Positions 3,008-7,304 are shown, numbered from the stretch's first letter. The stretch is 32,000 bases of DNA from Vibrio cholerae ATCC 14035 (GCF_000621645.1 NZ_JHXR01000003.1:120001-152000); one strand, 5' to 3'. Made by a program: numbers and translations. Notes: generated from the sequence alone by a model not told the origin.

Positions 3008-3130
3008 GAATATTTCTCTGTCGTTATGTGGTGAAAATTGCCATGCATCATAGTTGGGTTTTATTGGTTGGCCAAAGATATTTGTGAGGCAAATGAAAAG
3101 AGTGGGGGAATTTTCTTCGAGAAGAATGGT

Positions 3131-3142
3131 GGGGGGGGGGGG
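3131..3142. repeat. Homopolymeric G12 (C12 on the minus strand) tract in a region with no supported gene
   Basis: Direct read: ...aatggt GGGGGGGGGGGG cgaagg. It lies 124-135 nt upstream of the minus-strand start codon at 3007. Confidence 0.9.
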
Positions 3143-3619
3143 CGAAGGACACGCTAACCCTTGCCCACTTATCGCGCCACGATTTGCTGAGGCTTGGATG
3201 CTGGTTATTCCAAGTATTCACGAACAGATGTGCCTGTTTTGCTTGCTACAATGTGGCTGGGGCATAAATGGTTTTAAGATCTGCTGCAAGGGCTTACATT
3301 GTTTCCAACTTACAAAGCAGAGGCTATTGGATTTTTGGTGCACTACACTATCGAGTATATTGGTGCTAATGCCCGCAGCTGCAAAGCTGTTTATCTCATT
3401 TCTTTATGAGCTTAAGATCAAAGTTGCCGTTGCGAGTGTTTACACTGTTTTTATCGGCAACATCATGTTTGGCGTAACTAAGATGCTGCTCTATCTCGGC
3501 CCAAGTGCATGTTAGGCGAGTGTTTTTGTTAGCTGCTTATACTATATATTGTTCACCAAGCAGGTATTTTAGGTATTTGTAGTCCGCTACTAACTGAACG
3601 ATAAGCTGGTCTTATATTG

Positions 3620-4237
3620 TCACATTGTAAGTTCTCGTAAAATATATTTAAAATTACCACTTTTTATAAATTTATTGGTTAGTTCATGTCTATTGTGTTT
3701 TGTTGCTTTTAAAATGTATATTAATCTTTCTATTTGTTTTTTTCTTTCTAGTTGTAGGTGTGGTTTATTTAAGCCTAACATGTCGATTGTAGTTTGAATA
3801 CTATGCTTTTCTTTTCTGTTTTTAAACCCGCGAGGATTTATAAAACCATCAGTGTTTAAAGAGAAATGACTATTGCATGATGGTGATGTCGGCTCAATAA
3901 ATAAAATGTTATCTTTCTTTTTTTGTCCACAAGTTTGAGTCTTACGATTTTCTTGAATACATGAAACAGCATAATTACTGTAGGTGAAACAGAGATTAGG
4001 TTGAGCATTTCTTCCCGATTTTGGTTTAATATGTTCAACTTGCATTTCATCAACGCTATATTTTTTTTCACAGTATACACATAGTTCACCTTGGAGAGTG
4101 TGTAGTCTATCTCTTACAATTTTCTTTACTCCTTGAAAGTCATGTGCACTGAAATCTTGAATGGTCAAAGATTGACCTTTTAATTTGACATAATTTTCAA
4201 GTTCAGTAGGAGTATTATTGTGTGATAATGGAATCAT
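3620..4237 (-). CDS. Retron-associated HNH endonuclease (PtuB-like effector subunit), 205 aa
   Basis: This is the last gene of the cassette and starts 12 nt after the ATPase stop. The HNH/zinc-ribbon pattern is present: LCVYCEKK ... VEHIKPKS ... N ... AVSCIQENRKTQTCGQKK. The 205-codon size matches orf205 of retron-Vc95 as I recall it. Confidence 0.8.
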   Translation of the reverse strand: MIPLSHNNTPTELENYVKLKGQSLTIQDFSAHDFQGVKKIVRDRLHTLQGELCVYCEKKYSVDEMQVEHIKPKSGRNAQPNLCFTYSNYAVSCIQENRKTQTCGQKKKDNILFIEPTSPSCNSHFSLNTDGFINPRGFKNRKEKHSIQTTIDMLGLNKPHLQLERKKQIERLIYILKATKHNRHELTNKFIKSGNFKYILRELTM

Positions 4238-4249
4238 AATATTTATCTC

Positions 4250-5871
4250 TTAGTCATCACTTTCAGATTTATCGATAAAAAATTCACGATTTTCTGCTAT
4301 AAAACGCCACATTTCAATGTCTGCTATATCAAATGTATATCCAGTGCTTTCTATGCGTTTTTTAATCTCTTTGGTCTTTCGACAATCTTCTTGTCCTCTT
4401 TTCACCAGAGATTCATATTTTTTTATAAGAGCTAAAATTTCTTCACTATGAACTAATGGAGATTCGGATGTTTCCATGATAGCTAGTGCATCCGAGGCAT
4501 TTTTGCCAAATGGATTGCTTGTTGGAGATAGTAATTTGAATCTATAGTCTAATTCATTAATTATTTTTATTTGTTCCGAAGTAACTGTTGTTAGAACTAG
4601 TGGGCTATGCGTTGATAGGATGAATTGGATATTTGGGAAGGTATTTTCTAGTTTTTGAACAATAGTTTGTTGCCATTTAGGATGTAAATGAAGATCAATT
4701 TCATCGATTAAAACAATACCATATCCATTTAACGGATTTTCTAAGCTAGGATTTAGTATTACTAATCTTCGAGCGATATCAGAAACCAAAGCGATAAGTG
4801 TTTTCTCACCCTGAGATAGATTAAAAATACTAATCTCACTTCCATTTTTTATAACTGTCATATCTAAGTGAGGTGTTCTACTTATCTTAACTTGATCTAT
4901 ATCGGATACAAAAGTTTTTATGGACTCTTGAATTACTTTTTGTTGTCTAATTAAAAATTCTCTATCTTCATTATTGTTGTAATTATTTTTTTTCTCTAGT
5001 AATTGAGAAATAAGACTTCCTATTTTCTCTTTGTTATCAGTCTTAGATAATAAATATTCAATTTCCTCCTTTGTTATAGAGTCATTTGCTTTGAATTCAT
5101 TAATAATATCATCAATTTCTTTGTACCAAGAAAAAAATCATTGAAATTAGATGTGCCATCAAAGGCATTTTTTAGACCTTCACTTTTATCACTATATTTG
5201 GCTTTTTTTCGTTCATAATATTTTACAGCGTCATCTCTTTTAAGAGTTACTGAACGTTCAACTGGATAATAGGCTAATAAAGGGTAAGAGAGAGTATTAT
5301 TATCCAGTTCATTAGAGCGTTGGTACATGCGTGCTAGAGCTTTAAATTCTTCAAGCTCACTAGACACTTTTCTTGATATGTTTTCTCTGTTCTTTGTTAG
5401 GCTACATGAAAAAGAAAAATCATTTTCTATTTCCAAAATACATCTTACAATGGTTTGTCCGCTTATTGAATGGATATTAATTTCTGAATCTTGGAATTTG
5501 TAGTTGTTATTATTTTGGATTCTGATGTTATCAGAAAGAAATTGTAGGCATTTGGATATAGATTCAAGGATAGTACTTTTTCCGGAACCGTTATTACCAA
5601 TAATGATCGTTGTATTTTTTTCTGATGACGTGAATTTTAATTTGGAGAATTTCTTGTAATCATACAAGGAGATATTTCTGAGTCTGATTTTAGCATTGTT
5701 GATAATACGTGACACGTTTCTTAGATATAGTTCACTCTGTTCTATGTCCCTTTCTAAAACTTCACCATCGTAGTAATACTCAGAAACAGTAAAGGATGAG
5801 TACAGATCTCCCTGTTTAGCCTGTCTAATTTTATCTTTAACATATTTGGGGATTCTAGTTGGCTCATTCAT
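4250..5871 (-). pseudogene. Retron-associated ABC/SMC-like ATPase (PtuA-like), interrupted by a 1-nt frameshift in a T7 run
   Basis: The 5074-5871 fragment carries Walker A (GNNGSGKST). The 4250-4861 ORF carries the signature-like LSQGEK, Walker B (VLIDEIDLHLHP) and the H-loop (LSTHSP). My manual translation shows the downstream frame is open from 5137 all the way to 4250. The two frames overlap at the run A7(+)/T7(-) at 5131-5137. One extra T gives a single ORF of 1623 nt, which is 540 aa plus a stop. Confidence 0.85.
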
Positions 5872-6843
5872 TTAGTTACTTCCTCTGAGAATTTTTTCAA
5901 CGATGTTCACTTTATATTTATGGCTAAGTCGATGAATATATATAGGCTCTATATTATATGCGAACGCTAACATCCCTTTCATGTGATTAATTTCATCAAT
6001 GTCAAGATTTTTATTTATGTATTTAAATACTAGAGAAGAGATATATCTTTTCCTACTTCTTCCTATTGATATTTTACTATCGTTAGTTAATGTTATACCA
6101 GTAACATGACGATTGTGCTTTTTAGATGAGAAAACGGTTTTTCTTTTATTAATTATTATTCTTCCAGCATATGTTTGTATAATTAACTGCTCAACTATTT
6201 CTGGTAGCTTATTTAAAGTGTTTTTTATGTTGGTTGAGAATGTGATATCGTCTGCGTACCTGGTATAGTTAATGCCATGCTTAGTGCATATATCATTAAT
6301 TATTTTGTCAAATGGGTACATAATAGCATTGGATATTAATGGTGATATAGGAGATCCAACGCTCAATATTAGCTTTCCGTTCCTTTTTTTACTTGGGTTC
6401 CAGAATATCAATTGTTCTAGTTTTTCTAACTCATTTACTGAAAGTAGAATGTCATTTTGAATTAAACATTGTCGTAGAATGGTTGGAGTAATACTATTAA
6501 AAAAATTTTGGAAGTCCATTTTTAATACATAGGCAGAGTGACTGTGTACTAGAGCATTATCTTTTATACTTCTACCCTTGACATATGCATAGCTTGAGTC
6601 ATGTACCTTCAATAATGGATTTAGGATAGCATTCAAATGGCGCTGACAAATTTTGAGCTTACTAGAAGGATGCGCGATTGTCCGCCGCCCTGCTTTTCTT
6701 TTGGGAATTGAGTATACCTTATATGCATGAGAGCCTCTAACCTCAAGTCTCTCGAACTCCTGAGGCATAATTACATTGTTTGTTAAAAGTTGCTCTCTTA
6801 ATGTGGTTAGTATATTCAATTTTGTCCTTTTAAGAGTAAACAA
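5872..6843 (-). CDS. ret: Retron-type reverse transcriptase (323 aa from a TTG start; the N-terminus is uncertain)
   Basis: RT motifs are present: [10 protein letters not shown] (motif A region), [12 protein letters not shown], and the YADD catalytic box ([11 protein letters not shown]). The retron-specific VTG motif ([22 protein letters not shown]) aligns with the Ec86 RT as I recall it. The gene lies immediately downstream of an msr/msd-like structure. Its stop abuts the ATPase ATG (TAAATG at 5869-5874). Confidence 0.9.
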
Positions 6844-6865
6844 CCCAAGTATAAATTAACTTGGG

Positions 6866-7049
6866 TTGTTGCTAGCTCTTTACTAGAGACAGCGAAATGG
6901 AGGTTTTTCTCTCCTCTCGCAGTTCAGGGAAATGCGAGAGGAGAGAAAAACCTCCATTTCGCAACCCCAGTGTCGTTCAATAAATTTCAGTCTGGCTAAA
7001 CGCCCGACTAGACTAATATGTGTAGTCCATTCGCTAAAGAGCACAACAA
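6866..7049 (-). ncRNA. msr-msd: Retron non-coding RNA (msr-msd); the msd template lies at roughly 6883-6977
   Basis: On the minus strand, a1 is TTGTTGTGCTCTTTA (7049-7035), followed at once by an AGC triplet (7035-7033) with the putative branching G opposite c7034. The context TTAGCGA is the same as in Ec86 as I recall it. a2 is TAAAGAGCTAGCAACAA (6882-6866); it is complementary to a1 with a small bulge. msr hairpins occur at about 6990-7030. A 30-bp msd stem is also present. Confidence 0.8.
6892..6962. repeat. Perfect 30-bp inverted repeat with an 11-nt loop (the msd stem-loop)
   Basis: gcgaaatggaggtttttctctcctctcgca (6892-6921) is the exact reverse complement of tgcgagaggagagaaaaacctccatttcgc (6933-6962). 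The loop is gttcagggaaa (6922-6932). Confidence 0.95.
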
Positions 7050-7077
7050 TTTTAATTCATATAGAATCACTTCACAA
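7049..7077 (-). promoter_or_regulatory. Candidate sigma70 promoter for the retron transcript
   Basis: On the minus strand, TTGTGA (7077-7072) is followed by a 17-nt spacer and TAAAAT (7054-7049), placing initiation at about the a1 repeat. This rests on sequence pattern only. Confidence 0.35.
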
Positions 7078-7304
7078 GCATACCGATTGCGCAGTAATGT
7101 GAGTCTAATGGATCTAATGGATAGATTAATTGAGGAATGGGTATAGGAACCTGTGACCAGCCGCCTAGGGCTAGGTGGTACATGTAATAGGGATATGTGT
7201 AATATCGATGAATAAATGGAATAGATTGTCGTCTTGCGTTTCGCTGTTTTGATGTTTTGAGCAGTGATACTGTTGGGCTTTGTCATTCAAGATGTTGATT
7301 AGAA

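Follow-up and report, generated by a model that had tools for sequence, protein, structure and literature searches.

Retron-Vch1 (Vc95) of Vibrio cholerae, an element said to have been described in 1999, is a member of the type I-A or "retron-Septu" systems. These combine a reverse transcriptase (RT) and an msr-msd non-coding RNA (ncRNA) with a PtuA-like ATPase and a PtuB-like HNH endonuclease. Retron-Vch1 is listed as type I-A by Mestre et al. (2020; PMC7736814, Table 1). It adjoins VC2384, with genes for RT, ATPase and HNH (bioRxiv 10.1101/2024.07.25.605194), and its place at this site can be taken by Vc81 and Vc137 (PMC7736814; PMC6868368; bioRxiv 10.1101/2024.07.25.605194). Its multicopy single-stranded DNA (msDNA), msDNA-Vc95, is among those of the experimentally verified retrons (Millman et al., bioRxiv 10.1101/2020.06.21.156273) and its sequence has been compared in PMC11701397. 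Here we analyze a 32,000-nucleotide stretch of V. cholerae ATCC 14035 (GCF_000621645.1, NZ_JHXR01000003.1:120001-152000), called the window below, with positions counted from its first letter. It carries this already known element as an O395-type allele in which the ATPase gene is interrupted by a frameshift.

Type I-A systems with solved complexes include Ec83, E. coli FORC82 and Ec78 (Retron-Eco7), which share both the architecture and the ncRNA family of the window retron. In a type I-A retron, active-site mutants of the ATPase and of the HNH protein abolish defense, mutation of the RT is toxic unless accompanied by a mutation in the ATPase or HNH, and the ATPase holds the msDNA with its coiled coils and grips the HNH protein with its C-terminal helices (PMC11974896). 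Phage flap nucleases degrade the msDNA and a tRNA-cutting nuclease is thereby freed (PMC11974896; see also PMC12673091 and PMC11555353). Judging from these homologues, an intact Retron-Vch1 would be expressed as a single minus-strand transcript including the msr-msd ncRNA, RT, PtuA-like ATPase and PtuB-like HNH. The RT would prime from the 2'-OH of a branching G (7034) and copy the msd into a hairpin msDNA of about 95 nucleotides (nt). RT, msDNA, ncRNA, four ATPase subunits and one HNH protein would then form a complex which keeps the nuclease quiet. Degradation of the msDNA by phage nucleases would cause this complex to fall apart and release ATPase-HNH, which would cut specific host tRNAs, stop translation and abort the infection. 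That Retron-Vch1 has this mechanism in common with Ec83, FORC82 and Ec78, its msDNA being a phage-nuclease sensor restraining a tRNA-cleaving ATPase-HNH, is presumed (PMC11974896, PMC12673091, PMC11555353). In sequence, these systems are only distantly related to the window: against their chains the RT scores 265-292 bits and the ATPase 170-222 bits, and HNH similarity is detectable. Identity to relatives in other species is about 27-35% for the ATPase and about 23-31% for the HNH protein.

The window represents the carB to VC2384 region of V. cholerae chromosome 1. Exact look-ups of the RT and the neighboring TauE protein place the retron on this chromosome between carB and a TauE/LysR gene pair. 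This is the site occupied by Retron-Vch1 in V. cholerae O1/O139 (TauE/VC2384, near carB), where the same parts follow each other in the same order: msr-msd, RT, an ATPase of 540 amino acids (aa) and an HNH protein of 205 aa. Compared to Vc95 of El Tor-type genomes, the window shows three single-nucleotide polymorphisms (SNPs) and one indel over the approximately 3.5-kb retron, and the RT protein is identical. The indel is a run of seven T residues instead of eight (T7 for T8), leaving an ATPase of 265 + 203 aa. Two of the SNPs are synonymous and the other replaces D128 of the El Tor-type HNH by N128 (window 3856), which is the sole amino-acid change separating the two retron haplotypes of V. 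cholerae. An earlier note, made from the sequence alone, had pointed to retron-Vc95, and site, gene order and RT sequence bear this out. Of the ret, orf540 and orf205 which it also named, the last two agree in size with the intact allele (540 and 205 aa); the names orf540 and orf205 were not confirmed in the literature searched. Its description of four co-oriented, closely packed minus-strand elements (ncRNA, RT, ATPase and HNH) is accurate for every feature given. As expected of type I-A, the locus includes a retron RT, an msr-msd upstream of it, a PtuA-like ATPase gene directly 3' of it and an HNH gene 3' of the ATPase gene. The intact ATPase reading frame needed for function is absent.

The RT stop and the ATPase start abut (TAAATG) and the gap between the ATPase and HNH genes is 12 nt, as had been noted. 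The ptuA-like SMC/ABC ATPase gene (orf540) occupies 5871..4250 on the minus strand, a stretch of 1622 nt (3n+2), which reads as one open reading frame (ORF) of 265 aa, at 5871..5074, and a second of 203 aa, at 4861..4250. The frame-switch point is the T7 run at 5131..5137 (minus strand), where one T is missing relative to the T8 of intact alleles. Frame 0, with Walker A (GNNGSGKST, residues 92-100), stops at 5074, and frame 2 carries the LSQGEK signature (352-357), Walker B (VLIDEID, 387-393) and the C-terminus. The break, at codon 245-247, therefore falls between Walker A on one side and the signature and Walker B on the other. The ATPase motifs claimed in the earlier note are all present. 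The gene is not a single ORF, to which the note alluded only among its suggested checks. PADLOC profiles recognize both the N- and the C-terminal fragment (PtuA, 215 and 258 bits; ATPase_I-A, 178 and 220 bits). Once repaired to 540 aa, the protein can be aligned over its whole length with the retron ATPase of Ec83, its best match among solved structures (222 bits), and the alignment crosses the repair site (FFSWYKE versus FFRWFKE). The NCBIfam family for the retron Ec78 effector PtuA is by far the best match, with a score (410.6) below its cut-off of 500.

The T8 to T7 deletion is real and not a sequencing error, since independent assemblies, including both O395 records, share T7. Over 12.8 kb the window and CP001235 differ by no mismatch and by one poly-G indel, and the same 265 + 203 split is found there. 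The same two fragments also appear in the NCBI records ABQ19872.1 (265 aa, '[Vibrio cholerae O395]') and ABQ20843.1 (203 aa). T7 is common to both O395 records and to three of the loci retrieved for comparison, which are designated L (L004, L006 and L010), and all of these T7 loci carry the same three SNPs (synonymous at RT D281 and at ATPase Q354, with N128 for D128 in the HNH protein). Homopolymer runs are error-prone, and several long-read-like assemblies have extra homopolymer indels at this locus (L007, L009 and L043), as would be the case if the gene were intact in the real genome and broken only by sequencing or assembly. With T7 present in two independent O395 records (CP001235; ABQ19872.1/ABQ20843.1) and in several other assemblies of the same SNP haplotype, we regard an error as extremely improbable. 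Loci with T8 encode the intact 540-aa protein (L001, L002, L013, L018, L047, L048 and L050).

A second lesion affects the same gene in other strains. On the El Tor-type haplotype (L011, L015, L019, L039, L042, L045, L046 and L049), a run of eight A residues equivalent to window positions 4986-4993 is reduced to seven (A8 to A7), which leaves an ATPase of 306 + 203 aa; the window itself has A8. T8 to T7 occurs in every examined locus with the O395-type SNP haplotype of the window, and A8 to A7 in many El Tor-haplotype genomes. The 265-aa product is found in 213 index blocks and the 203-aa fragment, which is common to both lesions, in 1636, compared to 8517 for the 315-aa RT call and 13116 for TauE. 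Index blocks are rough proxies rather than genomes, pseudogenes lacking a protein call are missed and some assemblies are noisy (L007, L009 and L043). On these rough counts, disrupted ATPase alleles form a sizeable minority. A search for homologues of the repaired ATPase does not separate the alleles, the representative of its V. cholerae cluster being a 306-aa frameshift fragment. Many V. cholerae assemblies also end a contig inside the AT-rich ATPase gene, giving "partial" proteins of 135-285 aa whose length changes in step with that of the contig; these are an assembly artefact able to mimic truncation and not additional alleles.

The literature searched, which did not extend to the primary papers of 1999 and 2011, contains no report of a Vc95 ATPase frameshift, and the recurrent homopolymer frameshifts are possibly one detail not reported before. 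The ncRNA is unchanged in all T7/A7 loci and the RT is intact except in three assemblies with other homopolymer indels. Taken at face value, the pattern might mean that slippage at the two runs has repeatedly inactivated the Vc95 ATPase in pandemic V. cholerae, and might reflect selection against the retron toxin, reversible ON/OFF switching of defense or a role of the RT and msDNA which is independent of the effector. We give this interpretation a small chance. An effector-independent role of RT and msDNA has been raised in older speculation on virulence.

For the allele in the window, we consider the most likely state to be an intact ncRNA and an intact RT which probably still produce msDNA, with a non-functional effector and loss of defense. 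The effector would be dead, and the RT and msDNA production untouched, because of the position of the break at codon 245-247 and the published requirement for the ATPase. Several points weigh against this conclusion. We infer both msDNA production and loss of defense in this allele. The literature searched included no paper showing Vc95 defense against vibriophages in V. cholerae. Both effectors score below the cut-offs of the NCBIfam Ec78 PtuA and PtuB families, and their target specificity (for example the tRNA cut) may differ from that of the homologues studied. Finally, the sequence at the break, GAT TTT TTT C, is a slippery heptamer of the X_XXY_YYZ form. Either a ribosomal slip of -1 or slippage of transcription within the T run would give back exactly the native NDFFSWYKE, so that some full-length protein is possible.

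This last point leads to the idea that the system is still active, with T7 acting either as a recoding site (-1 ribosomal frameshifting or transcriptional slippage) or as a reversible ON/OFF phase-variation switch. The run does read T_TTT_TTT in frame, and slipping by -1 would yield the native protein (the candidate recoding sequence is GATTTTTTTCTT). However, the T8 allele codes for the protein in a single frame, which makes T7 a derived deletion, and no stimulatory hairpin is evident on reading the sequence 3' of the run. Low-level recoding is possible, and nothing beyond the slippery T_TTT_TTT speaks for it. Continued activity would be consistent with the occurrence of T7 on two SNP backgrounds (the window, L003, L004, L006 and L010 on one, L005/L040 on the other) and with the second homopolymer frameshift, A8 to A7, in other strains. 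Some of the T7/A7 calls on the El Tor background, however, come from assemblies with other homopolymer indels (L007 and L009), which suggests sequencing noise. Moreover, the V. fluvialis retron has T6 and no A8 at these ATPase sites, so the homopolymer runs are not conserved features. We judge it quite improbable that the system is kept active in either of these ways.

A loss of effector function could also be avoided if both ATPase fragments, the 265-aa fragment with Walker A and the 203-aa fragment, which bears the signature and Walker B as well as the C-terminus that binds the HNH protein, were made and reassembled into a working head. Both keep their motifs and have long ORFs, and heads of the SMC/Rad50 type can be reconstituted from separate N- and C-terminal halves. 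In this case, however, residues 248-337, inserted where the ATPase head is divided into its two halves, would be lost. In the solved type I-A retron, the coiled-coil insertion IS2 of the ATPase wraps the msDNA (PMC11974896). In addition, the ATG at 4861 is not preceded by a Shine-Dalgarno-like sequence, and an unrestrained C-terminal fragment on the HNH protein would be expected to be toxic or inert. Reassembly is very improbable, and a silenced effector beside an intact RT and ncRNA is the reading we retain.

The 205-aa HNH protein reported in the earlier note is encoded by 4237..3620 on the minus strand. It is PtuB-like and carries the motifs CxxC (residue 53), EH (68-69) and SN (87-88). It scores 350 bits with PADLOC PtuB and 101 with HNH_I-A, passes TIGR02646, "retron system putative HNH endonuclease" (80 versus a cut-off of 52), and has the NCBIfam retron Ec78 effector PtuB as its best match by far, with a score of 88, below the cut-off of 150. 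Among solved structures it matches the FORC82 HNH and Septu PtuB (E ~1e-7). The PADLOC, TIGR02646 and structure matches agree with the previous description of the ATPase and HNH as a PtuA/PtuB-like pair in a retron. Stand-alone Septu (PtuA/PtuB) has a homologous ATPase (PDB 8ee4, E ~1e-33) and HNH (8ee7, E ~1e-7), but neither RT nor ncRNA; the pair in the window is contiguous and co-oriented with the RT and msr-msd, which rules out a stand-alone Septu.

The longest ORF for the retron RT is 5872..6843 (minus strand), the 323-aa protein described earlier, with YADD at residue 196 and the retron VTG at residue 247. An alternative start, TTG at 6819, is preceded by AGGA and gives 315 aa. Gene calls of 315 aa are found in 8517 index blocks compared to 571 for 323 aa, and the TTG at 6819 is the probable start. 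The RT scores 418 bits with PADLOC RT_I-A, passes NCBIfam retron_St85_RT (308.7 versus a cut-off of 235) and, among solved structures, is most similar to the Ec83 retron RT (292 bits). In a scan of species-representative genomes, the RT retrieves only distant relatives (43-54% identity) and no V. cholerae record. For the ATPase and HNH, scores are slightly higher with the generic PADLOC profiles (PtuA and PtuB) than with the retron-specific ones (ATPase_I-A and HNH_I-A). This would be the expectation if the RT belonged to another class (group II intron, diversity-generating retroelement (DGR), or abortive infection, "unknown group" or defense-associated RT (Abi/UG/DRT)) and the ATPase and HNH were an unrelated, adjoining Septu. 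That possibility has virtually no weight and is already refuted. The RT_I-A score contrasts with 71.8 for the group II intron RT family (TIGR04416, cut-off 300) and 51.8 for Drt2 (cut-off 390), a bona fide msr lies directly upstream of the RT gene, and the order msr-RT-ATPase(-HNH) recurs in distant relatives. The profile search of RT class, which the earlier note had suggested as a check, assigns the protein to retron type I-A and to neither the group II intron RTs nor the DRTs.

Upstream of the RT gene, the ncRNA has all the parts of a retron msr-msd. The msr (6972..7042, minus strand) matches the full Rfam RF00170 model at 78.6 bits (gathering score 52). A minus-strand fold of 6866-7060 has an energy of -95 kcal/mol (z = -11.8), with its 5' end at 7049 paired to its 3' end at 6866, and a structured ncRNA had been claimed for precisely 6866-7049. 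The paired ends are the a2 repeat (7049-7035, or 7049/7042-7035, minus strand) and the a1 inverted repeat (6866..6882, minus strand), which pair in the fold, in the repeat scan and in covariation. The putative branching G is placed at 7034 (minus strand) by its conserved position in TTTAGCG only. Within the msd, a long hairpin (6892-6962, minus strand) is formed by an inverted repeat of 34 nt with 97% complementarity.

Covariation was examined in an alignment of 11 sequences, which combines the window and V. fluvialis with nine distant loci from gammaproteobacteria, retrieved in the RT scan and having Rfam msr matches. Compensatory changes were observed in 22 of the 39 consensus pairs; they involve a1/a2, an msr stem-loop and, with many changes, the long stem of the msd. 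None of the eight a1/a2 pairs is lost in any of the 11 sequences, two of them show compensatory changes, and the V. fluvialis copy (81% nucleotide identity) shows paired substitutions in the msd stem. The msd would serve as template for a predicted 95-nt msDNA (6883..6977, minus strand): counting 95 nt from the a1-adjacent base, 6883, leads to 6977, 6 nt inside the msr 3' end. The 5' end of this predicted msDNA is CTAGAG and includes the TAGA motif reported for msDNA-Vc95 (PMC11701397). With end points placed in this way, length and motif are a check of consistency with Vc95 and not a proof.

Between a1 and the RT start lies a 12-bp hairpin (6839..6870, minus strand) with perfectly complementary arms, which overlaps the TTG of the 323-aa ORF. 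Most relatives have a hairpin at this position, and a T run often comes after it. A sub-threshold match to Rfam STnc400 (6969..6825; 69 bits versus a gathering score of 80) covers this hairpin, which suggests that the STnc400 sRNA family was built on a retron msd region. Just 5' of the msr there is a weak promoter-like site (7049..7077, minus strand; TTGTGA, 17 nt, TAAAAT; 9 of 12 consensus positions), within the region shared with the retron of V. fluvialis, to which homology begins at 7097. Promoter and terminator scans of the region gave site counts not above chance. A tRNA-like sequence is present just 5' of the msr in V. fluvialis (L051, ~4550-4625), and Rfam tRNA matches are found in the same position in three distant relatives (L031, 4475-4547; L024, 4122-4203; L036, 3501-3573), with none at the V. 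cholerae site.

The retron lies in an AT-rich islet, as had been stated: the GC content is 0.25-0.35 over approximately 3500-6500 compared to 0.50-0.55 in the flanks. V. cholerae loci with other cargo (L012, L014, L016 and L017) show homology to the window only up to ~3046-3135 and then again from ~7184-7204. Because they match the window only outside these edges, we delimit a replaceable, strain-variable cassette at approximately 3136..7202, between a 160-aa gene and the TauE gene. The other cargo in these loci includes 351-aa, 507-aa and 253-aa proteins with no Pfam match; a CsgG/DUF4810/GNA1162 operon and a Tn5-like transposase are further cargo at the site. Varied cargo between the 160-aa gene and TauE agrees with the published description of the site as a defense hotspot. 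The window contains neither an integrase nor a tRNA.

The unit which the window has in common with V. fluvialis, the retron proper, extends from 3629 to 7097. The extent given in the earlier note, 3620-7077, is close to this unit and narrower than the strain-variable cassette (3136-7202). Its proposal that nothing in the window apart from the islet was clearly acquired by horizontal transfer is plausible: the remaining dips in GC content (~19000-19500 and ~25500-26000) lie between genes. The V. fluvialis retron (L051; ATPase P0001, 84% identical) has 81% nucleotide identity over window positions 7097-3629 and includes the same four parts, with an intact 538-aa ATPase and neither a T8 nor an A8 run. 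Its context, beside the tRNA-like sequence and between flgT and ompA/gltX, differs from the V. cholerae site.

The segments of the cassette outside the retron proper (3136-3628 and 7098-7202) are without Rfam, NCBIfam or DNA matches among the loci retrieved. A poly-G run (3131-3142, G12 here), whose length ranges from 8 to 12 among V. cholerae loci, lies exactly on the carB-side edge. At the opposite end, a palindrome, CCTCCCCCTAGAAGGGGGAGG, is found ~25-45 nt inside the TauE-side boundary of other cassettes (L012, L014 and L017), and the window carries a degenerate palindrome, CCGCCTAGGGCTAGGTGG, at 7161-7178. Such a palindrome might act as a terminator or be connected with recombination. The ~480 bp 3' of the HNH gene (3143-3619) are part of the V. 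cholerae cassette and not of the V. fluvialis retron; they include a 105-aa plus-strand ORF (3198-3515), called in some genomes, with no family or RNA match. In one V. cholerae genome, an insertion sequence with a 536-aa DDE transposase (L011, 2369-3979) is inserted 3' of the HNH gene, inside the cassette, at a point equivalent to window ~3303-3309. Elsewhere in the window, a minus-strand Rfam gltS RNA match (25481-25582; 101.7 bits versus a gathering score of 47.5) sits in an AT-rich intergenic stretch upstream of a 1530-aa ORF (20828-25420, minus strand).

As a system, Vc95 is a textbook retron whose close homologues have been solved structurally and understood in their mechanism, and the copy described here adds nothing new to it. 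For annotation, this allele should be read as a retron with a pseudogenized effector, and defense-system finders which require an intact ATPase may miss or miscall it. Whether the retron defense can work appears to set O395-type genomes, and some of the El Tor type, apart from other pandemic strains. Such strain differences could matter in interpreting differences in phage susceptibility between V. cholerae lineages.

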